A stretch of 64,000 nucleotides of DNA, taken from NCBI RefSeq assembly GCF_003018255.1, contig NZ_CP027440.1; one strand, written 5' to 3'. The position numbers were made by a program, and so were the translations under genes. The first letter of the stretch is position 1, and each line of letters opens with the position of its first letter. A model generated the notes under the pieces. It was not told the DNA's origin and made no database searches. It saw nothing but the letters and a program-made list of their open reading frames with translations. This DNA comes from Escherichia coli. Its GTDB lineage: Bacteria > Pseudomonadota > Gammaproteobacteria > Enterobacterales > Enterobacteriaceae. Positions 9,651 through 22,624 of the stretch are shown in pieces.

Positions 9651-10793
9651 TCAAATCTGCTTTTCATACAATCGGTAACGCTTGTACGGCTCCGCCCCAA
9701 TGCGTTCCAGCATGTTATTCATGCCTGTATTGGTTTCGAGGATCCATGACATCTCCAGCGCATCGATCTTCCGACGGGCAAACGGATCGCGTAAGGCTTC
9801 AATCAATAACAGCGCAATTACCGGGCCGATGCGGCTGAACTGATACTCGTCCCGCACGCCCATCAGCGGCACTCGCGCAGTTCGCACACCGCTGACTTTC
9901 AAACGCCACAGCAATTTTGCCCAGCCGAAGGGAAAGAGCGATCCGTTCAGATCGGCAATCGCCTCGTTGATGTTCGGCAAGCCAACAATAAACGCGCAGG
10001 GTGCAGAATCAATCTCAGCGATGTAGATCATATCGTCCGGCACCAGATATTTAAGTTGATCGCCCATGGTCGCGAATTCATGTTCGGTAAACGGCACAAA
10101 TCCCCAGTTGTGCTGCCAGCCAGAATTGAAAATCTCACGCAGGATCTGCATCTCTTCGGCAAACCGCTGGCGATTGATGCAGCGAATGGTCACTTTTTTG
10201 CGCACCTGATCCATCAGTTTTTTTAGCGCCGGAGAGAACGTGAGATCGGTTCGCTGCATCCACCACGCCAGTAAATCAATGCCTTTGTGATAACCCAGTT
10301 GTTCAATATGCGCGGCATACCACGGTTTGCCGTGTGGCATCATCGCACAGGGCGGAGTGTCAAAACCTTCAATCAGTAATCCGCTTTCCTGATTGATATT
10401 CAGGCTGAAAGGCCCGCTGATCTTATTTGCACCTTGTGACTTTAACCACGCTTCCGCTGCGCCAAACAACGCGGCAAAAACCTGCGGATCATCAATGGCA
10501 TCAATCATTCCGTAATGACCGGTATCTTCACCGTAACGCTCACGGTGCAAGGTATCGATTTGCGCGGTAATACGCCCAACTATCTGCCCCGCTTTTTTTG
10601 CCACCCACGCCTGCCAGATGATATGGTCCGTCCCCGGATTCTTCGCAGACAAATGCTCGCTGCGTTCAATGAATAAAGGGGGTATCCAGTTTGGATCATC
10701 GGGATAAAGTGATGACGGAAAAGCGATAAATGCCTTAAGGTCATTTTTATTAATTACTTTTTCAATTTTAATCATCAGCAGATCGCATTCCAT
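9651..10793 (-). CDS. yghO: Large GNAT-like acyltransferase (YghO), 380 aa; candidate N-acyltransferase of the adjacent lipid module
   Basis: Full-length ORF convergent with glcC and divergent from the acyl-AMP ligase operon; position matches yghO in K-12; GNAT-like assignment from sequence recognition only. Confidence 0.7.
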   Translation of the reverse strand: MECDLLMIKIEKVINKNDLKAFIAFPSSLYPDDPNWIPPLFIERSEHLSAKNPGTDHIIWQAWVAKKAGQIVGRITAQIDTLHRERYGEDTGHYGMIDAIDDPQVFAALFGAAEAWLKSQGANKISGPFSLNINQESGLLIEGFDTPPCAMMPHGKPWYAAHIEQLGYHKGIDLLAWWMQRTDLTFSPALKKLMDQVRKKVTIRCINRQRFAEEMQILREIFNSGWQHNWGFVPFTEHEFATMGDQLKYLVPDDMIYIAEIDSAPCAFIVGLPNINEAIADLNGSLFPFGWAKLLWRLKVSGVRTARVPLMGVRDEYQFSRIGPVIALLLIEALRDPFARRKIDALEMSWILETNTGMNNMLERIGAEPYKRYRLYEKQI

Positions 10794-11164
10794 ATCTCTG
10801 TGGATAACAAATAATTAACGGTGAAAAACAGGTTGCAACAGCAACGAACGGCATCTTAATAATCAACCCAATGAATACAAACAAAGAATAAATAGTATTT
10901 ATTAATGATTACGATAAGGTCAGAGACTACACAGAAGCGCCACAATGCCTCTTGTCGATTTAAGGCGACCGGACAAGGCTCCTTCTTAATATATTCATAA
11001 ATTAAATATCATTCACAATAAAAACAAAAAAACTCAAACATATTATTTAAATCAATGTTCATTTTCACACCGATGAAAATACTATCTCATTTATCTTTTA
11101 TGCCTATATAATCCACCGCATTATTGTCATTTTATTTTGGATATCCAATTTTTTCGTGGTGTAT

Positions 11165-12889
11165 ATGTCTAATAAAATCTTTACGCATTCCCTACCTATG
11201 CGCTATGCCGATTTTCCAACGCTGGTTGATGCTTTGGACTACGCCGCTCTGAGTAGCGCCGGAATGAATTTTTATGACAGACGTTGCCAACTTGAAGATC
11301 AACTGGAATATCAGACGTTAAAAGCGCGTTCCGAAGCTGGTGCGAAAAGGTTGTTATCGCTGAACCTGAAAAAAGGCGATCGCGTGGCGCTGATTGCCGA
11401 AACGAGTAGCGGGTTTGTAGAGGCTTTTTTTGCCTGCCAGTATGCCGGCTTAGTCGCCGTCCCGTTGGCGATTCCAATGGGCGTCGGTCAGCGGGATTCC
11501 TGGAGCGCCAAACTGCAGGGTTTACTGGCAAGTTGCCAGCCCGCAGCCATTATCACTGGTGATGAGTGGTTGCCACTGGTCAATGCCGCGACGCATAACA
11601 ACAACCCCGAATTACATGTTTTAAGCCACGCCTGGTTTAAGGCATTACCGGAAGCCGATGTTGCGCTCCAGCGTCCAGTTCCAAACGATATCGCCTACCT
11701 CCAGTACACCTCCGGCAGCACCCGTTTTCCCCGTGGCGTCATTATCACCCATCACGAAGTGATGGCTAATCTACGTGCTATAAGCCACGATGGCATTAAA
11801 TTACGCCCTGGCGACCGCTGCGTCTCCTGGCTGCCTTTCTACCATGATATGGGACTGGTCGGCTTTCTCCTGACCCCCGTCGCCACGCAGCTTTCAGTAG
11901 ATTATTTGCGCACTCAGGATTTTGCCATGCGTCCTCTGCAATGGCTTAAATTGATCAGTAAAAATCGCGGCACCGTTTCCGTTGCACCGCCGTTTGGCTA
12001 TGAATTGTGCCAGCGCCGCGTGAATGAAAAAGATCTCGCTGAACTGGATCTTTCCTGCTGGCGCGTCGCTGGTATTGGAGCAGAACCGATCTCCGCAGAA
12101 CAACTCCATCAATTCGCTGAATGTTTTCGTCAGGTTAACTTTGACGATAAAACTTTCATGCCGTGCTACGGACTGGCAGAAAATGCGCTGGCTGTCAGCT
12201 TCTCTGATGAAGCCTGCGGGGTTGTGGTTAACGAAGTGGATCGCGACATCCTCGAATACCAGGGTAAAGCCGTCGCGCCGGGTGCTGAAACACGCGCCGT
12301 ATCGACTTTCGTCAACTGCGGTAAAGCGTTGCCGGAACATGGCATTGAAATCCGCAATGAAGCAGATATACCTGTCGCGGAACGTGTGGTAGGCCATATT
12401 TGCATCTCCGGCCCCAGCCTGATGAGCGGGTACTTTGGCGACCAGGTTTCGCAAGACGAGATTGCCGCGACGGGCTGGTTAGACACCGGCGACCTTGGTT
12501 ATCTGCTGGACGGTTATCTGTATGTCACCGGACGCATTAAAGATCTGATTATTATTCGTGGCCGTAATATCTGGCCGCAGGATATTGAATACATTGCGGA
12601 ACAGGAACCGGAAATTCATTCTGGCGATGCGATTGCTTTTGTTACCGCCCAGGAAAAAATCATTTTGCAGATCCAGTGTCGGATCAGCGACGAAGAACGT
12701 CGCGGGCAGCTTATCCACGCGCTGGCAGCTCGGATCCAAAGCGAATTTGGCGTTACCGCGGATATCGATCTGTTGCCGCCCCACAGTATTCCCCGAACAT
12801 CCTCCGGCAAGCCTGCCCGTGCGGAAGCGAAAAAACGTTATCAGAAGGCTTATGCTGCCAGTCTTCATGTGCAGGAATCCCTGGCATGA
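11165..12889 (+). CDS. Adenylate-forming fatty acyl-AMP ligase / acyl-ACP synthetase-like enzyme, about 574 aa
   Basis: AMP-binding signature (YTSGSTRFPRGV), size typical of acyl-AMP ligases; start uncertain (track GTG at 11156, first ATG at 11165); stop overlaps next gene start (ATGA). Confidence 0.8.
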   Translation: MSNKIFTHSLPMRYADFPTLVDALDYAALSSAGMNFYDRRCQLEDQLEYQTLKARSEAGAKRLLSLNLKKGDRVALIAETSSGFVEAFFACQYAGLVAVPLAIPMGVGQRDSWSAKLQGLLASCQPAAIITGDEWLPLVNAATHNNNPELHVLSHAWFKALPEADVALQRPVPNDIAYLQYTSGSTRFPRGVIITHHEVMANLRAISHDGIKLRPGDRCVSWLPFYHDMGLVGFLLTPVATQLSVDYLRTQDFAMRPLQWLKLISKNRGTVSVAPPFGYELCQRRVNEKDLAELDLSCWRVAGIGAEPISAEQLHQFAECFRQVNFDDKTFMPCYGLAENALAVSFSDEACGVVVNEVDRDILEYQGKAVAPGAETRAVSTFVNCGKALPEHGIEIRNEADIPVAERVVGHICISGPSLMSGYFGDQVSQDEIAATGWLDTGDLGYLLDGYLYVTGRIKDLIIIRGRNIWPQDIEYIAEQEPEIHSGDAIAFVTAQEKIILQIQCRISDEERRGQLIHALAARIQSEFGVTADIDLLPPHSIPRTSSGKPARAEAKKRYQKAYAASLHVQESLA

Positions 12890-13800
12890 ATCAAACTGTC
12901 GCGGTGACGGGCGCTACCGGGTTTATCGGTAAATATATTATTGATAACCTGCTCGCCCGCGGCTTTCACGTTCGCGCATTAACGCGTACTGCCCGCGCTC
13001 ACGTCAATGATAATCTCATCTGGGTGCGCGGTTCGCTGGAAGATACACATTCGCTTAGCGAACTGGTTGCCGGAGCCAGCGCGGTGGTCCATTGCGCCGG
13101 ACAAGTGCGCGGACACAAAGAAGAGATTTTTACCCGCTGTAACGTTGACGGCAGCCTGCGCCTGATGCAAGCGGCAAAAGAGAGCGGCTTTTGCCAACGT
13201 TTTCTGTTTATCTCTTCGCTGGCGGCGCGCCATCCCGAACTCTCCTGGTACGCAAATTCCAAACACGTCGCCGAACAACGACTGATCGCAATGGCTGACG
13301 AAATTACGCTGGGCATTTTTCGCCCGACAGCCGTGTATGGTCCCGGCGATAAAGAGTTAAAACCGCTGTTTGACTGGATGCTGCGCGGCCTGCTGCCACG
13401 ACTTGGTGCGCCAGATACACAACTCTCTTTCCTGCACGTCACCGATTTTGCGCAAGCAGTGGGTCAGTGGTTAAACGCCGAAACTGTACAGACGCAAACC
13501 TATGAATTATGCGATGGCGTCGCTGGCGGCTATGACTGGCAACGCGTACGACAGCTTGCCGCCGAAGCCCGTTGTGGTTCTGTGCGGATGGTTGGCATTC
13601 CTCTGCCGCTACTCACCTGCCTTGCGGATATCAGTACTGCGTTGAGTCGCCTGGCAGGTAAAGAACCTATGCTGACCCGCTCGAAAATTCGTGAATTAAC
13701 CCACGCCGACTGGTCGGCAAATAATAACCGTATTTCTGAAGATATTAATTGGTTTCCCGGGATTAGCCTGGAACACGCATTACGCAACGGGCTATTTTGA
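12886..13800 (+). CDS. NAD(P)-dependent epimerase/dehydratase-family reductase, 304 aa
   Basis: N-terminal Rossmann motif VTGATGFIGKYI; start at ATG 12886 overlapping upstream stop (ATGA); track ORF from 12676 is an out-of-operon extension. Confidence 0.8.
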   Translation: MNQTVAVTGATGFIGKYIIDNLLARGFHVRALTRTARAHVNDNLIWVRGSLEDTHSLSELVAGASAVVHCAGQVRGHKEEIFTRCNVDGSLRLMQAAKESGFCQRFLFISSLAARHPELSWYANSKHVAEQRLIAMADEITLGIFRPTAVYGPGDKELKPLFDWMLRGLLPRLGAPDTQLSFLHVTDFAQAVGQWLNAETVQTQTYELCDGVAGGYDWQRVRQLAAEARCGSVRMVGIPLPLLTCLADISTALSRLAGKEPMLTRSKIRELTHADWSANNNRISEDINWFPGISLEHALRNGLF

Positions 13801-13831
13801 TTGTCTTGTTTAAAGGTGTGTTAACGTTTCT

Positions 13832-14080
13832 ATGGTAAATCGTGAAATAGTAATGGATTACATCCTTTCCTGTTTACAGGATTTGGTCGAAAACGGTGTG
13901 GAAATTAAGCCCGACAGCGATCTCGTCAACGATCTTGGCCTGGAGTCGATCAAAGTGATGGATCTCTTAATGATGCTGGAAGACAGATTCGATATTTCCA
14001 TTCCTATTAATATTCTGCTGGATGTCAAAACCCCTGCGCAATTAATGGAAACTCTACTTCCATGGCTGGAGAATAAATAA
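13832..14080 (+). CDS. Dedicated acyl carrier protein, 82 aa
   Basis: Small acidic protein with phosphopantetheine-attachment-like motif DLGLESIKVMDL; stop overlaps next start (TAATG). Confidence 0.75.
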   Translation: MVNREIVMDYILSCLQDLVENGVEIKPDSDLVNDLGLESIKVMDLLMMLEDRFDISIPINILLDVKTPAQLMETLLPWLENK

Positions 14081-15252
14081 TGGGGCTATACGATAAATAT
14101 GCGCGCCTTGCTGGCGAGCGCCTGCAATTTAGTGACAACGGGTTAACACCATTTGGCACCTGTATTGATGAAGTGTATTCCGCCACCGAAGGCCGGATCG
14201 GCAATAAAAAAGTGATTCTGGCCGGGACCAATAATTATCTCGGTTTAACCTTTAATCATGATGCTATCCGCGAAGGTCAGGCAGCGTTAGCGGCCCAAGG
14301 CACTGGCACCACCGGTTCTCGTATGGCAAACGGCAGTTATGCGCCGCATCTGGCGTTAGAGAAAGAGATTGCCGAGTTTTTCAATCGCCCTACCGCTATC
14401 GTTTTTTCAACCGGTTATACCGCTAATTTAGGTGTCATCAGCGCACTTGCCGACCATAACGCCGTGGTGTTACTGGATGCCGACAGCCACGCCAGTATTT
14501 ATGACGCCTGTTCTCTCGGCGGCGCAGAGATTATTCGTTTCCGCCATAATGACGTCAACGATCTGGAACGGCGCATGGTCCGCCTCGGTGAACGGGCGAA
14601 AGAGGCGATTATTATCGTTGAAGGCATCTACAGTATGCTCGGTGACGTTGCGCCGCTGGCAGAAATTGTTGATATCAAACGTCGTCTCGGTGGTTATTTG
14701 ATTGTCGATGAAGCACATTCGTTTGGCGTGTTAGGCGCAACAGGCCGCGGACTGGTTGAAGCCGTTGGCGTTGAAGACGACGTGGATATTATCGTCGGCA
14801 CCTTCAGTAAAAGTTTGGCTTCCATTGGTGGTTTTGCCGTGGGTTCAGAAGCGATGGAAGTGCTGCGCTACGGCAGCCGCCCGTATATTTTTACCGCCTC
14901 TCCTTCTCCGTCCTGCATTGCGACCGTGCGCTCGTCGTTAAGAACCATTTCCACACAACCAGAGCTGCGGCAAAAACTGATGGATAACGCCAACAATCTG
15001 TATGACGGTCTGCAAAAACTGGGTTATGAGTTAAGTTCACATATTAGCCCGGTAGTGCCAGTAATAATCGGTTCGAAAGAGGAAGGTTTACGCATCTGGC
15101 GCGAGCTTATTTCGCTGGGCGTTTATGTGAATCTTATCCTGCCACCTGCCGCGCCTGCAGGCATCACGCTGCTGCGCTGTAGCGTAAACGCTGCCCACAG
15201 TCGTGAGCAAATCGATGCCATCATTCAGGCATTTGCTACTCTGAAGCAGTAA
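14080..15252 (+). CDS. PLP-dependent alpha-oxoamine synthase, serine-palmitoyltransferase-like, 390 aa
   Basis: Class-II aminotransferase fold with PLP-lysine motif GTFSKSLASIGG; distinct from BioF and Kbl; translationally coupled to the ACP gene. Confidence 0.8.
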   Translation: MGLYDKYARLAGERLQFSDNGLTPFGTCIDEVYSATEGRIGNKKVILAGTNNYLGLTFNHDAIREGQAALAAQGTGTTGSRMANGSYAPHLALEKEIAEFFNRPTAIVFSTGYTANLGVISALADHNAVVLLDADSHASIYDACSLGGAEIIRFRHNDVNDLERRMVRLGERAKEAIIIVEGIYSMLGDVAPLAEIVDIKRRLGGYLIVDEAHSFGVLGATGRGLVEAVGVEDDVDIIVGTFSKSLASIGGFAVGSEAMEVLRYGSRPYIFTASPSPSCIATVRSSLRTISTQPELRQKLMDNANNLYDGLQKLGYELSSHISPVVPVIIGSKEEGLRIWRELISLGVYVNLILPPAAPAGITLLRCSVNAAHSREQIDAIIQAFATLKQ

Positions 15253-15257
15253 TGTGA

Positions 15258-15292
15258 GCCCGCTGTGGTGTTGCGCCACGGCGGGTTTAATG
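15258..15292. terminator. Convergent hairpin (cccgctgtgg...ccacggcggg) with T-rich tail between the synthase gene and the LptG-like gene
   Basis: About 10-bp stem read from sequence, followed by tttaatg. Confidence 0.4.
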
Positions 15293-16366
15293 TTGTCTGT
15301 CATACCAATACACCAGGCTCAACGCCACCAGCACAAACGCTACCGGTAAACCGAGCGCGGTAACAGGTGCGCTCAACGCAAATAACAATCCCAGATTGAC
15401 CATGATTTGATAGCTGATCCAGGTGAGTAAGCCAACGATGACGCCTACAGCGAGACGGCTACCCATCCCAGGCGAACGCGGGGCGCTAAAGGTAAACGGC
15501 ACAGCCAGCAAAATCATCGCCAGGGTCAAGATGGGTTGTCCCAGTTTTTCCCACAGTGCAAGGCGGTATTCGCTGCTGGGTTGCCCGGTTTCCTGCAAAT
15601 AATGGATGTAATGATTAAGTTGACGGACAGAAAAAGTATTTCCCGGCATCGATAACTCTTCAAGATTCATACTGGTGAAGGCCGATTGCCAGGGAAGATT
15701 ATCAGATGTTTCCTGCGTTTCTTTGCCATTCAGCCATTTTTTATGATTCACACCATGCAGGATCCACGTTTTGTCGTCTTCAATGGTAGCACTGCGCGCA
15801 TAAATGTAGGATTCGAGCGAGAGATCATCGCGGTAATGAAATATCTCCACGTCCACCGGCTGGCCCTGCTCGTTCAGCGATTTCACCGTCACAAATTCAT
15901 TACCACGCCTGGCCCACAGCATATTGCCGGTAATGTCATCGTCCTCCCCCAACGCAGTGGCAGTCGATTTGATTTGCAGCGCCTGTTGCTGCAATGGCGA
16001 CGCCACCCACTCATCTATCGCGCCTAATGAAACAGTCCACAATATCCCGGCAACCAGCGCCACCAGTGCAATACGGAAGATAGAAAACCCCGTGCTGCGA
16101 ATGGCGGTAAGCTCACTGTTTTTCGATAACTGCCCCAGGCCGACAATCCCTCCCAATAAGGCGATAAACGGCGAAAGTTCGACCAGTGTGCGCGGTAAGG
16201 TCATCAGCACCACCAGCACCGCCTGAGTCCAGCGATAACCACCCGGGCTGACATCATCCAGTTCGTTAATCAGGTTGAAGGTGGTAAAAAGCGGCAGCAA
16301 TAGCCCTGCGGCGGCGGCAAAACCGAGAAAGAGATGACGGATTAAATAGCGACTGAAAACATTCAT
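15287..16366 (-). CDS. LptG/LptF-family (YjgP/YjgQ) permease paralog, about 359 aa
   Basis: N-terminus MNVFSRYLIRHLF typical of LptF/G permeases; trimmed to ATG at 16366 overlapping upstream stop (ATGA). Confidence 0.75.
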   Translation of the reverse strand: MNVFSRYLIRHLFLGFAAAAGLLLPLFTTFNLINELDDVSPGGYRWTQAVLVVLMTLPRTLVELSPFIALLGGIVGLGQLSKNSELTAIRSTGFSIFRIALVALVAGILWTVSLGAIDEWVASPLQQQALQIKSTATALGEDDDITGNMLWARRGNEFVTVKSLNEQGQPVDVEIFHYRDDLSLESYIYARSATIEDDKTWILHGVNHKKWLNGKETQETSDNLPWQSAFTSMNLEELSMPGNTFSVRQLNHYIHYLQETGQPSSEYRLALWEKLGQPILTLAMILLAVPFTFSAPRSPGMGSRLAVGVIVGLLTWISYQIMVNLGLLFALSAPVTALGLPVAFVLVALSLVYWYDRQH

Positions 16367-17433
16367 CGGGAAAATTTCTGCAGCAAAGAGAAGTCGCGTG
16401 CGACCAACATCAGCAGGCCCATTAGCATGAGTCCGGGTACTAACCACAAACCAGGAATGAGGGGAATCGCGCCGTTAGCCACCAGCGTACGGCAGACGTC
16501 GCCGCCATAAAAAATGGCAACAAACAGCAACGTCAGTGGCAATAACGTTGAAAATCGCCCTTGCCGCGGTTTTACCCGACTTAATGAAATGGCCAGCAGC
16601 GCCATCAACAATGCTGTCAGGCCACGGCTTTGTCGCCATTGCAGTTCGGCATGATCGGCAGGAAAGGCGGAGCGCGCCAGCTCCGTGACCGATTTTGCTT
16701 TGCGTTTGACGTTAGGGCTTTGATCCAGCGGATTCAGATGTAATTGCAGATTACGGTAGATCTGTTCGTTGTCGTCACGCCCCTGATGATCGAGAAGATA
16801 GGCGGTCCCGTTATGCAACATAACGGTCGGTTTCTCAGGTGATGGGTCAACCACATCAACCGAACGGGCGCGGAAAATGCGGGTTCGATTAGCAGTAGAA
16901 GTATAAATCAGCGCATCAGTCAGGCGATTATTATCCTGATCAACCGTCTGCGAAAGGATCATTCGTCCGTTATCGTTAGTGTTAAATTTCTTTGCCCGCA
17001 ACTGGCGAACATCCAGCTCCGACTGTGACTGTTGCTCCAGTTGATAAATCTGCGCATAAGCCCACGGACGACCATACATCGACAGAAGGGTGACAAAAAT
17101 ACTTAGCGGTATCGCCAGATAAAGAACGGCTTTGTACAAGCGTCCCGGACTGCCCCCCGCCGCAGAGATAGCGGTAATTTCCGAGTCGGTATACATCTGC
17201 CCTAGCGTCACGCCAACTGACACATACAGTCCAACAGGTAACAACATCTCCAGTGCAATCAGCACTTTGTAGAAAACGATATCCAGCACAACATCAAGAG
17301 CTAATGTCCCATTTGCCGCTTCGGTCAGATAACGCTGTGCGGAGTAGCTGGCGAAAATAAAGATCAGAAAACCGACGATAATCAGCACCAGACGGCGCGT
17401 ACCACGCATGATGTAGTGTTCAACCAGCTTCAT
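16363..17433 (-). CDS. LptF/LptG-family (YjgP/YjgQ) permease paralog, 356 aa
   Basis: Polytopic membrane protein with LptF/G-like N-terminus; operon partner of 15287-16366. Confidence 0.75.
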   Translation of the reverse strand: MKLVEHYIMRGTRRLVLIIVGFLIFIFASYSAQRYLTEAANGTLALDVVLDIVFYKVLIALEMLLPVGLYVSVGVTLGQMYTDSEITAISAAGGSPGRLYKAVLYLAIPLSIFVTLLSMYGRPWAYAQIYQLEQQSQSELDVRQLRAKKFNTNDNGRMILSQTVDQDNNRLTDALIYTSTANRTRIFRARSVDVVDPSPEKPTVMLHNGTAYLLDHQGRDDNEQIYRNLQLHLNPLDQSPNVKRKAKSVTELARSAFPADHAELQWRQSRGLTALLMALLAISLSRVKPRQGRFSTLLPLTLLFVAIFYGGDVCRTLVANGAIPLIPGLWLVPGLMLMGLLMLVARDFSLLQKFSR

Positions 17434-17462
17434 CTCACTAACGCCCTCAATCCTTTGAATTT

Positions 17463-18026
17463 TTATTCATTGATCAGCTTCTGCGCCAGCGCAATGACAT
17501 GATCTACCTCTTCCGGCGTCAGGCTGCCGTCCTTTGCCCACTGAATTTGCCCGGTTTTATTCAGCACCAGAATGGTTGAACTCTGCTCCTGCAAGTGCCA
17601 GGCAACGCGTCCCTGTCCATTGCCGTCAATAACGAATTGCGCCCATGGATAGCGGCGTTTATTTTTTTCGATTTTGCCAACGACAAAATAGCCGGTACCA
17701 AAGATGGCATCATCAGTGTTCACAATGGTGGTGGGCTGAAAACGATCCTGCGGAAAGTTTGCCGCTTCAACTGCTTTAATTAACAGTGAGTTCTTTTTCT
17801 TCGCCGACTTACGCCCGGCGATATACTGAATAATGCGAACTTTTCCCGCCAATTGGGTGCTGTTCCACTTTTGGTAGTGAATTTCGTCGTCGCTATTCCG
17901 AAGCAGCTCGCCGCCTTCCTGGATATAAACGGGGGTAACCGTTTTGCCAGTGACGAAATTGTGTGCCTGCACACCCGGGGCTAAGAGCATGATAATCAGC
18001 GCAATAATCAAACGAGATGACATCAT
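17463..18026 (-). CDS. Secreted/periplasmic protein with cleavable signal peptide, possibly YtfJ-like, 187 aa
   Basis: N-terminal signal peptide (...LLAPGVQA/HN); family assignment tentative. Confidence 0.55.
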   Translation of the reverse strand: MMSSRLIIALIIMLLAPGVQAHNFVTGKTVTPVYIQEGGELLRNSDDEIHYQKWNSTQLAGKVRIIQYIAGRKSAKKKNSLLIKAVEAANFPQDRFQPTTIVNTDDAIFGTGYFVVGKIEKNKRRYPWAQFVIDGNGQGRVAWHLQEQSSTILVLNKTGQIQWAKDGSLTPEEVDHVIALAQKLINE

Positions 18027-18034
18027 TGCTCCGG

Positions 18035-18859
18035 TTATAGCGGAAAACGCGAAATCAGCAGTTCTAAGCGCTGGCGAATATCGCTATCCAGCGCCATCGG
18101 TGCATCATACGACTGGCGGTTTTCCATATCATCCGCCACCATGTCGTCGTGTTTATCCCCCATCAGGCCATTAATGGCGGCGAGGAAGCGGGAAATCTGT
18201 AACGCTTCTTTATTTTCAGGATCAAGCGATCTTAGGGTGTCGTAATAAGAAACCTGCTGGCTGATGATTTTTCGCACATCATGAAATTCCCTGCCGGTTA
18301 GTCGCGGTTTGGCAATTATCTCTTTCAGGGTATGCATTTGCTTTTGCCGATAGGCAATAAAACCGCTTACGCTTTCTAACTGGCTATGGCGTAATGAATA
18401 GTTCACCAACGACCAGACCGGAGAGCTTAAATAAACCCGTAACAGGTTGCCGTAATACGACACAATATTTTTCTTACCGTTACGAAAGCCGTCCTGAAAA
18501 CGCCCCAAAAAAACGGTCGTTTTGCCGAATAAAAATCCGGCCTGATGCTTCTTTAAATACAGCCGTTGCGCAAAACGCAGGTGCTTGTAGCGCGCTCGCA
18601 TGTATTTAAATTGTTTGCGCTCATCAGCAGTCAGCTCATCGCCTTTGGCCTGTTTGCATATTAAACGCAGTAACTCCTGGCGATTGACGCCATTGAGCCA
18701 GAATTGCAGGCATAACGCGTAATTATCATGGATGATTTCGGTGGTACAACTTAGTGCGATAGTCGGCGGCAAACTGACCTGTGCATCAACGACATCATCT
18801 TCTTCAATCGCAACAAATAGACGCTCGCTCGCCTCTAGCGGGAAATATTTTCTCATCAT
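18035..18859 (-). CDS. Hypothetical protein, 274 aa
   Basis: Full-length ORF in operon; start overlaps the stop of yghQ by 1 nt; no domain recognised. Confidence 0.6.
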   Translation of the reverse strand: MMRKYFPLEASERLFVAIEEDDVVDAQVSLPPTIALSCTTEIIHDNYALCLQFWLNGVNRQELLRLICKQAKGDELTADERKQFKYMRARYKHLRFAQRLYLKKHQAGFLFGKTTVFLGRFQDGFRNGKKNIVSYYGNLLRVYLSSPVWSLVNYSLRHSQLESVSGFIAYRQKQMHTLKEIIAKPRLTGREFHDVRKIISQQVSYYDTLRSLDPENKEALQISRFLAAINGLMGDKHDDMVADDMENRQSYDAPMALDSDIRQRLELLISRFPL

Positions 18860-20208
18860 CAGGATTTCTCTCCGGCTGCGTTATAAAGCAAGGAATGGCG
18901 CTGAAAAAATGCCTTTAAGGTCGGAATTAGCGAAAGCACCACATCCAGACATTGACCACCGAAATAAGCAAACGCTGCTCCCAGCACGCCAAACAGATGA
19001 CAGAACATGAACAGCAATACGATGTAGCCGATTGAGGCGATGGTTTGCGCCACGAGAAAAGCGCGCTGTTTTCCCGCCATCAATAGCAATGACTCCTGAG
19101 GGAAGCCCAGCATCGAGATCACAATTGCGCCCAGCATCACCTGAATCAGGTCATACGCTTCGAGATACTTAACGCCAAACACCAGCGAAATGAGCGGCTT
19201 GCCGACAATCAACACCGCGAGCGCCACCAGAATACCGATTCCGCCCGCCAGTAAACCTGACTTCACGCCTAACAACCACGGTCTGGTGGTACGCGGATCT
19301 AAACGCATCACCTCTGGGTAAAAACTTTTGCCCAGTAAACCCGCTGGCGTTCCGGCGGCGTCGAAGAATGTCATGGCGATTTTAAATAACCCGGCGGCAG
19401 CGGGTCCTAACACGATCCCCACCAACACTGTGCTGCACGAATTACGCGCCGACCAGATGGAATGGGCAATGTTGGTTGACCAGACAAAACTCCACGCGCC
19501 TTTGATGTGTCGGGCAGACTCAAACAGATTCAATTTGAACGCGTTATGGATATTTCTGCGGCGTAATTCACGTGCGGCAAACCACCAGTACATGGTGCCG
19601 CCAACAAGATTCGAGGCGTACCAGGCAATAACAAAACCCGCAAAACCAAAGTCAAAATACCAGGCAACGACGCTCCCCGCTGCGCGCAGAAAAGGTTTCG
19701 TCGCTTGCTGTACAGCAATTAGATCGAAGCGATCTACCGCACGCAGAATGCCGGTCGGCGTGGAGGAAGCCATTGAAGGAATGAGCGTGCAATACAGCGC
19801 TGCCAGCCAAAAGCTTTGGTCATCCAGACCTAATGAATGGGAAAGAAAAGGGAGTAAGGCAATGCCGCCGACAATCGCCACCGCGCCGCTGACGATATCC
19901 AGCGAGAAGGAAAATGAGACGACATTGCGGAATTGCTGCGGATTATTGTTGGTTAATGCTGGTGTTCCGTACTGAACCACCAGCTGCCATGTCTGAAACT
20001 TAATAAAATCGCTGATCGACTTGGCGTACGATTGTACAATCACCAGTACGCCAAACATGGCGGGCGTCATCCCTTTACCGGCACACGAGAGCGCCAACAG
20101 ACCCAGCAAAGCGCTCACGACATTACTGGAGCCTAACCAGGCGCTATTGCGAATAATGGTGCGAAACGCGCCATCTGCAAACCAATGTTTGATGTTAAAA
20201 CCCGCCAA
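18859..20208 (-). CDS. yghQ: MOP-superfamily flippase/exporter, full-length 449 aa
   Basis: Polytopic membrane ORF at the K-12 yghQ position; K-12 YghQ recalled as 355 aa, suggesting a 3'-truncated K-12 copy. Confidence 0.75.
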   Translation of the reverse strand: MAGFNIKHWFADGAFRTIIRNSAWLGSSNVVSALLGLLALSCAGKGMTPAMFGVLVIVQSYAKSISDFIKFQTWQLVVQYGTPALTNNNPQQFRNVVSFSFSLDIVSGAVAIVGGIALLPFLSHSLGLDDQSFWLAALYCTLIPSMASSTPTGILRAVDRFDLIAVQQATKPFLRAAGSVVAWYFDFGFAGFVIAWYASNLVGGTMYWWFAARELRRRNIHNAFKLNLFESARHIKGAWSFVWSTNIAHSIWSARNSCSTVLVGIVLGPAAAGLFKIAMTFFDAAGTPAGLLGKSFYPEVMRLDPRTTRPWLLGVKSGLLAGGIGILVALAVLIVGKPLISLVFGVKYLEAYDLIQVMLGAIVISMLGFPQESLLLMAGKQRAFLVAQTIASIGYIVLLFMFCHLFGVLGAAFAYFGGQCLDVVLSLIPTLKAFFQRHSLLYNAAGEKS

Positions 20209-20253
20209 TTCAGCCTGACCTTATCGTTGATAGTAAAAAGTATCCCGCCAGCC

Positions 20254-21012
20254 TTAAGTTAAACTTCGGCGGTCAGAAACGATGGCAACCAGAGAAACCG
20301 CCTTCTGTGCCTGTTCCAGCACTTCGCTGTAGGGCGCTCTGGAATCAATCTCAAGAATTTTTGTGCCGTTATAGCCAATCGTCGACATGACGCCGATTTT
20401 GTCCTGCAGCTCGGCATAGTCATGGTCAGGCTTGCGGGAGATGGCAGTATCAATATCAATCCCCAAACGAATGATTAATTCAGGACGGTATTGCGCCATT
20501 TGTTGGTATAAACGCCGTTCGCGCTGCGCCAGAAACATGCTGATTTTCCCGGTCGCACGTTCGACGCCGATCCCCGGTCCGTCATAATAAAAGCCCGAAA
20601 TTTCAGCCTGCGGGAAGCGATCGCTGACCACCAGAACGCCACTTTGCGCCAGTCGCTGAACCTTGCGTAGATTCGCCATTCTTCGCAGCGAGAAGCAGTA
20701 CATAATCACCGCCGCCCATAGCGCTGGAGATTTGGTTTTCATGCTTTGGGTTTTCGAGGATTTGGCCGCCAGTCGCCGTTCGAGCCAGACGCCAACCAAC
20801 GGCAATCGTTTGATTTTGTCGCCGTCTTCGCCCGAGAGCAGCCCCAGATAGCGCCGCTCGGTTTGCCAGTGTTGTTGCAGCGATTTCACCAGGTCGGTGG
20901 TCAGTGTGGATTTACCGGTGCCATCACACCCGACCACCGCAATCAGCCCCGGAATGTAGTTGGGCTGCGGCGCGGTTGTACTATTAACAGTTTGTGTTTG
21001 TAGTGCGTCCAT
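20254..21012 (-). CDS. yghR: P-loop kinase, thymidylate/deoxynucleoside-kinase-like, 252 aa
   Basis: Walker A GCDGTGKST and downstream SDRFPQ motif; length matches K-12 YghR. Confidence 0.85.
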   Translation of the reverse strand: MDALQTQTVNSTTAPQPNYIPGLIAVVGCDGTGKSTLTTDLVKSLQQHWQTERRYLGLLSGEDGDKIKRLPLVGVWLERRLAAKSSKTQSMKTKSPALWAAVIMYCFSLRRMANLRKVQRLAQSGVLVVSDRFPQAEISGFYYDGPGIGVERATGKISMFLAQRERRLYQQMAQYRPELIIRLGIDIDTAISRKPDHDYAELQDKIGVMSTIGYNGTKILEIDSRAPYSEVLEQAQKAVSLVAIVSDRRSLT

Positions 21013-21043
21013 TCGTTAAATCATCCCCTATCCATTTTGGTGA

Positions 21044-21757
21044 TCAGGAAAGCGCGGCGTGAATTGCGCGTAGTGACGCTTGCAGAATTTCATCGGCGGG
21101 TTGCCGACCATCCAGTTCAAGGATCTTTGCACCATTAAATGTCAGTTGCGGCGTAACGGCGATTTTTTCCTGTAACGCCGCCAGTTGGTGGTCAGGTTTA
21201 CGCGCAAACGCGGTTTGTTCATCAATGCCAAGACGAATCAACAATACGGGCAAATAAGACGCCATCCATTGGTACAGCTTCAGCTCGCGCTGCCTTAACA
21301 TTTTTATCCAACCGTTACCGCCCGTGGTTTTTGCCAATTGCGGGCCATCAAAGCGAAAACCCGGCACTTCAACCTGCGGGTAGCGGTCGGTGATGAGCAG
21401 ATAGCCTTGCTGGCTTTTACACAACATTTTGCGAAACTTGTACGCCCGCCAGCAGGAAAGCAGATAGATAACCAGCGCAGTAATATTGCCAGGTGGTGTG
21501 GAGGGCTTTTCGTGCACATGTGCCGCTTTACTTCGCAGATAACGCCCAAAAGGTGCGCCAATAACAGGGAGCTGTGAAATCCATTCGCCAATTCGCCCGG
21601 ACGATTGCCCGAGATAAATGTGTTCTGTTGGCATTGTTGCTGCCAGTTCATTTACCAGGCTTGCCGTGAGGGTCGATTTACCTGAACCATCACATCCTAC
21701 AATGGCAATAACACGCACTGGCGTGGAATTAATTATTGACATATTACGTTGATTCAC
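21044..21757 (-). CDS. yghS: P-loop kinase paralog, 237 aa
   Basis: Walker A GCDGSGKST and TDRYPQ motif; paralog of yghR; length matches K-12. Confidence 0.85.
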   Translation of the reverse strand: MNQRNMSIINSTPVRVIAIVGCDGSGKSTLTASLVNELAATMPTEHIYLGQSSGRIGEWISQLPVIGAPFGRYLRSKAAHVHEKPSTPPGNITALVIYLLSCWRAYKFRKMLCKSQQGYLLITDRYPQVEVPGFRFDGPQLAKTTGGNGWIKMLRQRELKLYQWMASYLPVLLIRLGIDEQTAFARKPDHQLAALQEKIAVTPQLTFNGAKILELDGRQPADEILQASLRAIHAALS

Positions 21758-21931
21758 GAAAAACCCGGCAGCAAATAATGTATTGAATATTACGTGGTCC
21801 GTGCTCAGAATATCCGTTCAACCTTATTGTGACAATGGTTAATTGTGACATTGACCTGAATTACGCTTTCATCAAAAACATATTAACCAAATAAATATTT
21901 TGGATGGATATTTAAATTTAAGGATATATTC

Positions 21932-22624
21932 ATGCAGTCAATAATACCTCCATTAATTGCCGTTATTGGTAGCGATGGTTCAGGCAAGTCAACGGTGTGT
22001 GAACATCTTATTACCGTTGTCGAAAAATATGGTGCTGCCGAAAGAGTTCATTTAGGAAAACAGGCCGGAAATGTCGGTCGTGCAGTGACAAAATTACCGT
22101 TGATGGGAAAGTCTCTGCACAAGACTATTGAAAAAAATGAAGTGAAAACGGCAAAAAAATTGCCGGGTCCGGTTCCGGCCCTGGTGATCACCGCTTTCGT
22201 CGCCCGCCGACTGTTACGCTTTCGTCATATGCTCGCCTGTCGTCGTCGCGGGCTGATTGTCTTAACCGATCGTTATCCTCAGGACCAAATTCCTGGCGCT
22301 TACGATGGTACGGTGTTCCCACCTAACGTTGAAGGCGGCCGGTTTGTCTCATGGCTGGCAAGCCAGGAACGTAAAGCATTTCACTGGATGGCGAGCCATA
22401 AGCCTGATCTGGTCATCAAACTCAATGTTGACCTTGAAGTTGCCTGCGCGCGTAAACCCGACCATAAACGGGAATCGCTGGCGAGGAAGATTGCCATAAC
22501 GCCACAGTTAACCTTTGGCGGTGCACAACTGGTTGATATCGATGCTAATCAGCCACTGGAAAAGGTGCTGGTTGATGCAGAAAAAGCGATTACGGATTTT
22601 ATGACCGCGCGTGGTTATCACTAG
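21932..22624 (+). CDS. yghT: P-loop kinase paralog, 230 aa
   Basis: Walker [10 protein letters not shown] and TDRYPQ motif; divergent from yghS; length matches K-12. Confidence 0.85.

Follow-up and report, generated by a model that had tools for sequence, protein, structure and literature searches.

The stretch of DNA analysed here (the window) comprises 64,000 nucleotides of Escherichia coli, from contig NZ_CP027440.1. It carries aasR, cerR, acpR and spt, which form the known and already published E. coli sphingolipid (ceramide) operon. We recognize the cluster as a known one because its junction DNA is identical, and its proteins 96-100% identical, to those of the characterized cluster of strain BL21(DE3), where the four genes are ECD_02851 (AasR), ECD_02852 (epi, here CerR), ECD_02853 (AcpR) and ECD_02854 (Spt) (Padilla-Gomez et al. 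2022, PMC9386255). An original prediction, made from the letters of the window, had singled out two overlaps between stop and start codons at this locus as a sign of translational coupling across the operon, and our analysis concerns these junctions and the genes on either side of them. The features of the locus, in window coordinates and with Shine-Dalgarno abbreviated as SD, are as follows.

9651-10793, minus strand: yghO, divergent; homologue of the N-acyltransferase or bacterial ceramide synthase (aca, bCerS; ECD_02850 in BL21)
10794-11164, no strand assigned: divergent intergenic region, 371 nt, A+T-rich (GC 0.43-0.44 versus about 0.51 in the flanks)
11165-12889, plus strand: aasR, acyl-AcpR synthetase of the fatty acyl-AMP ligase (FAAL) type (Pfam AMP-binding, 3.4e-57)
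12864-12890, plus strand: predicted local RNA hairpin pairing the cerR SD (CAGG) and AUG with aasR coding sequence (-12.5 kcal/mol)
12873-12876, plus strand: SD-like AGGA located 9 nt upstream of the cerR ATG, within the 3' end of aasR
12886-12889, plus strand: junction 1, ATGA, aasR stop and cerR start, 4-nt overlap
12886-13800, plus strand: cerR (epi), NAD-dependent reductase of the ceramide pathway, an extended short-chain dehydrogenase/reductase (SDR) (Pfam Epimerase PF01370, 2.8e-23)
13801-13831, plus strand: cerR-acpR spacer, 31 nt, with a conserved AGGTG at 13814-13818, 13 nt before the acpR ATG
13832-14080, plus strand: acpR, specialized acyl carrier protein (ACP) of 82 amino acids (Pfam PP-binding, 1.3e-13)
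14068-14071, plus strand: GGAG, SD motif for spt within Leu-Glu codons at the acpR 3' end, 8 nt before the ATG
14078-14082, plus strand: junction 2, TAATG, acpR stop and spt start, 1-nt overlap, identical in BL21
14080-15252, plus strand: spt, serine palmitoyltransferase (SPT), an alpha-oxoamine synthase dependent on pyridoxal phosphate (PLP) (Pfam Aminotran_1_2; NCBIfam NF047599)
15255-15289, plus strand: strong hairpin rich in G+C (16 pairs, of which 9 are G-C), where spt and the lptG-like gene converge

The two overlaps are present as originally described, and they are borne out by the sequence, by the list of open reading frames (ORFs) and by RefSeq gene boundaries. Within the ATGA at 12886-12889, the TGA at 12887-12889 closes the AMP-binding ORF (11156/11165..12889) and the ATG at 12886-12888 shares its frame with the ORF ending at 13800. 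Within the TAATG at 14078-14082, the TAA at 14078-14080 closes the PP-binding ORF of 82 amino acids (13832..14080), and the ATG at 14080-14082 opens the ORF 14080..15252. The NCBI Prokaryotic Genome Annotation Pipeline (PGAP) called coding sequences at 11165-12889, 12886-13800, 13832-14080 and 14080-15252 on a stretch of strain JNE23-011 that is 100% identical to this DNA, so that re-annotation leaves the reading frames and boundaries of the original prediction in place, and the BL21(DE3) annotation has the same junction geometry. The genes are co-directional, and their 4-nt and 1-nt stop/start overlaps are of the kind seen in known coupled pairs. The original prediction made no mention of a third junction, at which 31 nt (13801-13831) separate the cerR stop from the acpR start, with no overlap.

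For comparison we fetched 80 species-level loci by way of an alignment of diverse Spt proteins, and located in each the homologues of the five E. coli proteins, taking as the start codon of each gene the one nearest to the homologous N-terminus. The loci come from Enterobacterales, Pseudomonas, Nitrosomonas/Nitrosospira, Caulobacter, Roseovarius, Gluconobacter, Nitrospira, Gemmatimonadetes and deltaproteobacterial metagenome-assembled genomes (MAGs).

These homologues bear on whether the overlaps might be annotation artefacts that arise from mis-assigned start codons. There is some latitude in the gene models: aasR has candidate starts at GTG 11156, ATG 11165 (the PGAP call) and ATG 11198 (the BL21 annotation), none of them preceded by a good SD motif, and alternative in-frame starts are available at GTG 12904 in cerR and at ATG 13853 (Met8) in acpR. 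The ambiguity in aasR touches neither junction, however, and the cerR and spt ATGs align to residue 1 of their homologues in nearly all loci, with TBLASTN matches that begin at residue 1; the cerR ATG at 12886 aligns with the start in 8 other Enterobacterales. With a start at 12904, cerR would lose part of the strand leading into the GxxGxxG motif, and the Pfam PP-binding match begins already at residue 9 of AcpR. We therefore regard mis-assigned starts as highly improbable, and treat them as ruled out by homology.

The identities of the four products are likewise well supported. AasR is placed among the FAAL-type adenylating enzymes by its match to NCBIfam NF006624, the fatty acyl-AMP ligase subfamily (867 bits, cut-off 600), and its specificity for AcpR is taken from PMC9386255; it is identical to BL21 ECD_02851 at 549 of 562 residues (97.7%). 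CerR has the Rossmann motif TGATGFIG starting at residue 8 and shares 291 of 304 residues with its BL21 counterpart. No curated NCBIfam model scored above its cut-off for CerR, and its assignment as the extended-SDR reductase encoded between aasR and acpR rests on the Epimerase match, this motif and homologues in that position in 64/80 loci, including that of Caulobacter (locus L050 of our set, E = 8.5e-40). AcpR is the product of a small, dedicated ACP gene directly 5' of spt; its phosphopantetheine-attachment serine, read from the translation, is Ser39 in DLGLESI, and the protein is identical to BL21 ECD_02853 at all 82 residues (the same WP_000248097.1).

Spt exceeds the cut-off of the NCBIfam equivalog model NF047599 (598 bits, cut-off 500), and its best matches in the PDB are bacterial SPTs, first among them the Sphingomonas paucimobilis SPT 2jg2 (1.1e-111), with KBL and BioF far behind (1e-59). 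The residues T241-F242-S243-K244 are invariant in the alignment, and K244 is presumably the PLP-binding lysine, by analogy with the S. paucimobilis SPT. By the family model, the PDB ranking and this TFSK motif, Spt is an alpha-oxoamine synthase of the serine palmitoyltransferase type. It matches BL21 ECD_02854 at 383 of 390 residues.

In the pathway as we understand it, AasR would load a fatty acid onto the dedicated carrier AcpR, Spt would condense the acyl-AcpR with serine to give 3-oxo-sphinganine, CerR would act as the pathway reductase, and the divergent yghO just upstream would encode the N-acyltransferase. Work with the BL21(DE3) proteins established that AcpR_Ec carries 4'-phosphopantetheine, that AasR_Ec, AcpR_Ec and Spt together yield 3-oxo-sphinganine, and that Spt_Ec prefers acyl-AcpR over acyl-CoA (PMC9386255). 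In the same paper the reductase role of ECD_02852 and the N-acyltransferase role of ECD_02850 were proposals only, and conversion of 3-oxo-sphinganine by intrinsic BL21 enzymes was put forward only as a suggestion. That the overlapping genes serve one pathway, and are not a chance juxtaposition, thus stands, but it had already been established by others: AasR, AcpR and Spt jointly make 3-oxo-sphinganine (PMC9386255), and the order aasR-cerR-acpR-spt is complete in 64 of the 80 loci that we compared.

The product of yghO (380 amino acids; 'protein YghO' in PGAP) matched no Pfam-A or NCBIfam model, and the gene has been named as an aca homologue (PMC9386255). A yghO homologue lies within flanks of roughly 6 kb around spt in 36/80 loci; among these neighbours, YghO homologues adjoin spt operons in Nitrospira and Gemmatimonadetes MAGs with E-values of 1e-113 to 1e-126.

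The overlaps had also been offered as special evidence, and this did not hold up. We took the census of overlaps in the matching 64 kb of JNE23-011, the strain closest to the window, and not in exact window coordinates, because a position-by-position comparison with the window fails beyond about 21.8 kb owing to an insertion or deletion. Overlaps occur in 12 of its 41 same-strand adjacent pairs, 5 of them by 4 nt and 4 by 1 nt, so that 9/41 neighbouring pairs have an overlap of the same kind as those in the operon; the overlapping neighbours include glcE/glcD, lptG2/lptF2, hybC/hybB and qseB/qseC. Across E. coli K-12, neighbouring genes are most often spaced at -4 and next most often at -1, and the range from -8 to +6 takes in 24% of the unidirectional pairs (Huber et al. 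2023, PMC10666635). The overlaps are no more than would be expected by chance for an operon, and represent the default junction type of bacterial operons.

More is learned from the comparison of the three junctions across species. The distances between adjacent genes, in the loci where the pair is adjacent, were:

acpR to spt: adjacent in 79 loci; median -1 nt; overlapping in 49; 12 nt or less in 78
aasR to cerR: adjacent in 64 loci; median +5 nt; overlapping in 22; 12 nt or less in 47
cerR to acpR: adjacent in 67 loci; median +31 nt; overlapping in 11; 12 nt or less in 14

The acpR gene lies directly 5' of spt in 79/80 loci; the remaining locus is an additional spt copy from a MAG in which the other spt copy does have acpR. 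The acpR-spt distance falls between -14 and +12 nt in 78/79 species, drawn from the Gamma-, Beta-, Alpha- and Deltaproteobacteria, Nitrospira and Gemmatimonadetes, whereas the cerR-acpR distance is 100-240 nt in many species and reaches 241 nt (Fisher test on distances of 12 nt or less, 2e-25, not corrected for phylogeny). The acpR-spt pair is thus the tightly constrained core of the locus and cerR-acpR its loose joint, in agreement with earlier work in which AcpR and Spt are seen as functional partners. In 78 of 79 species acpR and spt are no more than 12 nt apart, against as much as 241 nt between cerR and acpR, and this contrast suggests selection on closeness itself. It is conceivable, but in our judgement doubtful, that this selection is for coupled and possibly co-translational production of a carrier and its client enzyme, with a defined AcpR-Spt complex whose ratio is set by the junction.

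Two fused gene models were found among the predicted proteins. P0124, a metagenomic protein of 794 amino acids, combines an Epimerase/CerR-like domain with an Spt domain C-terminal to it. P0048 comes from a set of eukaryote proteins and joins ACP to Spt. With 97% identity to E. coli Spt, it probably stems from bacterial contamination, the two genes having been merged at the 1-nt overlap during gene calling. We gave these fusions no weight as support for a functional linkage.

From the geometry of the junctions and the gene order, we consider it quite probable that the genes of the known sphingolipid operon are read from a single mRNA and that aasR→cerR and acpR→spt are coupled separately, as two pairs. 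This transcript would start within the A+T-rich stretch at 10794-11164 and stop at the 15255-15289 hairpin. By analogy with E. coli pairs tested elsewhere, a ribosome finishing aasR would reinitiate at the cerR ATG, and one finishing acpR at the spt ATG, and the SD-like motifs inside the upstream genes would help reinitiation. Initiation at acpR would be independent, since the 31 nt between cerR and acpR exceed the distance over which reinitiation is efficient, and this would produce two coupled pairs rather than one chain. In E. coli a 38-nt gap lowered reinitiation by 80-100%, and gaps of about 20-38 nt nearly abolish it (PMC10666635). Coupling 'across the operon', as first proposed, is therefore not supported, the chain being broken at the third junction; at each of the two overlaps, translational coupling is plausible.

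The SD motifs differ among the three internal starts. The GGAG for spt and the AGGA for cerR both lie inside the 3' end of the upstream gene. The GGAG is predicted to form a duplex of -6.4 kcal/mol with the anti-SD, a range (-6 or lower) reached at 5% of random positions, and the TGGAG at this site is conserved in 11/11 gammaproteobacterial loci shown. The AGGA is only moderate, at -4.3 kcal/mol, with -4 or lower occurring at 16% of random positions. For acpR, the AGGTG in the spacer gives a duplex of -4.1 kcal/mol and is conserved among Enterobacterales. The spacer is probably the site of independent acpR initiation, and its length is 27-36 nt across Enterobacterales and Pseudomonas loci, with a median of 31 nt over 67 species.

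We note further that the spacer length is nearly constant (27-36 nt) from Enterobacterales to Nitrosomonas (the window and loci L006-L011 and L027-L036), and that Enterobacterales spacers carry a conserved AGGT(G/A) and TTTCTATG. The 13-nt distance from SD to ATG at acpR is unusually long, and we offer no explanation for it.

Several observations weigh against the reading of one transcript with two coupled pairs. In 79-80 species the acpR and spt start regions show less structure than the remainder of the operon (p about 1e-11), and spt is equipped with an SD, so independent initiation at these starts could dominate. What is conserved between acpR and spt is closeness and not exact geometry, with the spacing among relatives taking values of -14, -8, -4, -1 and 0 to +12. 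A weak promoter-like site, TTAACC-18-AATAAT, lies in the 3' end of cerR at 13696-13725 (9/12 matches). Finally, the literature that we searched yielded nothing on native expression or lipid products of the operon in E. coli.

Some of these points would be expected if the overlaps were by-products of compact packing, with each gene initiating at its own SD and upstream translation mattering little. On that account the SD-like motifs of cerR, acpR and spt (-4.3, -4.1 and -6.4 kcal/mol) would each suffice, the significantly unstructured acpR and spt starts would be free initiation sites, and neither the drift of junction geometry from -14 to +12 nt between relatives nor the presence of similar overlaps in 9/41 pairs of the same genome stretch would call for comment. 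Experiments on natural overlapping pairs speak the other way, in that 13 of 14 pairs tested, from E. coli and Haloferax, were strictly coupled (Huber et al. 2019, PMC6728339), with an SD contribution that differed from pair to pair. Mere packing also sits poorly with an acpR-spt distance of 12 nt or less in 78/79 species alongside a cerR-acpR distance that varies up to 241 nt. We judge this account to be unlikely, and continue to favor two coupled pairs.

The looseness of the cerR-acpR joint raises a different alternative, in which acpR-spt forms a separate or additional transcription unit from a promoter in the cerR 3' end, and the locus consists of the sub-operons aasR-cerR and acpR-spt. In its favor, the conserved acpR-spt core has been described as its own operon, with aasR far away in Sphingomonadaceae (PMC9386255), the cerR-acpR spacing is 100-240 nt in many species, and the promoter-like site at 13696-13725 is suitably placed. 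That site, however, is the only candidate; its score of 9/12 occurs at chance frequency, and its conservation among Enterobacterales goes no further than coding constraint explains. In E. coli, moreover, the two genes stand just 31 nt apart, and no terminator-like hairpin lies between them. We accordingly set the internal promoter aside, and rank separate units as slightly less likely than packing.

A single transcript is consistent with internal signals that occur at no more than chance frequency. Between 9600 and 15500 there is no excess of promoter-like sites (10 versus 7.2±2.6 expected) or of terminator-like sites (7 versus 7.1±2.8 expected), and the only strong hairpin in the region follows the spt stop. 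This hairpin, at 15255-15289, has a predicted stability of -33.2 kcal/mol (z = -5.9; 0/200 shuffles as stable) and a poor T-tail, and probably marks the operon end, where it may act as a terminator. At the other end of the operon, 10794-11164 is the presumed promoter/regulatory region, although the sole promoter-consensus match within it is on the minus strand.

The proposal of 'stoichiometric' co-expression is not supported. An overlap says nothing about ratios, and the SD and unstructured start of spt would allow extra de novo initiation. In Caulobacter, CerR is periplasmic and Spt cytoplasmic (PMC11087976), and the pairing of aasR with cerR consequently implies no stoichiometry of a complex.

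We also considered conserved RNA structure at the junctions as a general mechanism, and rejected it. The 80-nt regions around the junctions fold no better than shuffles (z = -0.42, +0.25 and +0.33). The hairpin predicted at the cerR start (12864-12890) is among the most stable 0.9% when the operon is scanned in 31-nt windows; its 80-nt context has z = -0.42, and the evidence for it is weak. It weakens to -7.4 kcal/mol in BL21, there is no such trend in 68 other species, and it is specific to this allele.

The junctions themselves are widespread. Among 5426 complete E. coli genomes, 4201 carry the operon and about 1225 lack it, and an 80-nt query that spans junction 1 (short aasR form) has matches in 4115/5426. 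The ATGA overlap is retained in 7/8 other Enterobacterales loci, and appears as GTGA in 2 Pseudomonas loci. At junction 2, acpR is 13 nt longer in most other Enterobacterales, which produces a 14-nt overlap; in E. coli and Rosenbergiella the TAA comes sooner.

A minority E. coli allele, represented by SCPM-O-B-8794 (locus L005), has an aasR 3' end that is 12 nt longer (…QESLAGFAQ* versus …QESLA*), with the ATGA still present. This longer end resembles that of other Enterobacterales.

The operon is flanked by glcC/yghO on one side and by lptG and lptF paralogues on the other. The latter (lptG paralogue, 15287-16366; lptF paralogue, 16363-17433) are on the minus strand, convergent to spt, and overlap each other by 4 nt. 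A 2026 preprint shows that sphingolipid transport in Caulobacter requires LptF2/G2, which act together with LptB, and also depicts the UTI89 locus of E. coli as one for sphingolipids that includes LptF2/G2 (bioRxiv 10.64898/2026.04.12.717747). The E. coli paralogue pair is probably the exporter of the operon's product. Farther on, 17463-22624 holds, on the minus strand, a YtfJ-family gene, a gene for a hypothetical protein of 274 amino acids, one for a 'lipopolysaccharide biosynthesis protein' of 449 amino acids and the kinase-like yghR and yghS, together with yghT on the plus strand. These genes may modify or export the operon's lipid; one paper on a bacterial ceramide kinase makes no mention of the kinase-like yghR/S/T genes.

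Strains differ in this neighborhood. In K-12 MG1655 (locus L002, record positions 3130146-3131340, against about 10800-19000 of the window), an IS5 element (insH9) lies between yghO and a shortened yghQ, and aasR, cerR, acpR, spt, lptG2, lptF2, the YtfJ-family gene and the gene for the 274-residue hypothetical protein are absent. The gene for the 449-residue 'lipopolysaccharide biosynthesis protein' is the full-length form of the yghQ that is truncated in K-12. In a comparison of two other strains, JNE23-011 (locus L004, 20680-22878) has ygiS followed directly by ygiV, and BL21(DE3) (locus L085, 43548-46668) has the mqsR-mqsA toxin-antitoxin genes between them.

The finding that was followed up is correct but ordinary, in that the operon, the functions of its genes and the pairing of acpR with spt are published and overlaps are the default junction. 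The modest addition made here is a quantified constraint on the acpR-spt junction that spans phyla, set against the loose cerR-acpR joint. For re-engineering or heterologous expression, we suggest that the native aasR/cerR and acpR/spt junctions be retained, as the downstream genes may depend on them.

Among known systems, the closest parallels for the junctions are the coupled E. coli pairs hyfH-hyfI, ydbH-ynbE and menD-menH (Huber et al. 2019, 2023), which are likewise co-directional, overlap by -1 or -4 and have an SD in the upstream gene; menD and menH, too, encode pathway enzymes. In those pairs coupling was measured, whereas the window junctions are known from sequence. The enrichment reported by Huber et al. 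concerns subunits of heteromeric complexes, and AasR and CerR are not known as such.

For the locus as a whole, the nearest counterpart is ECD_02851-ECD_02854 of BL21(DE3), which occupies the same place between glcC/yghO and an lptG-like gene, with identical DNA at all three junctions. The differences are amino-acid changes of 2-4% in three proteins and the annotation of aasR from a later ATG on the same DNA, and the stop/start overlaps are not discussed in the BL21(DE3) paper (PMC9386255). The pathway itself was defined at CC_1165-CC_1162 (aasR-cerR-acpR-spt) of Caulobacter crescentus. There the ceramide synthase gene is further away, Spt is roughly 50% identical, and in C. vibrioides T5M6 the junctions are short gaps of +1, +79 and +3 nt instead of overlaps. 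The gene order is nevertheless the same (loci L042, L046, L050 and L055), the locus also holds LptF/G paralogues (bioRxiv 10.64898/2026.04.12.717747), and in L050 the homologues of the aasR, cerR, acpR and spt products are found at E = 2e-147, 8.5e-40, 6.6e-9 and 1.9e-126, respectively.

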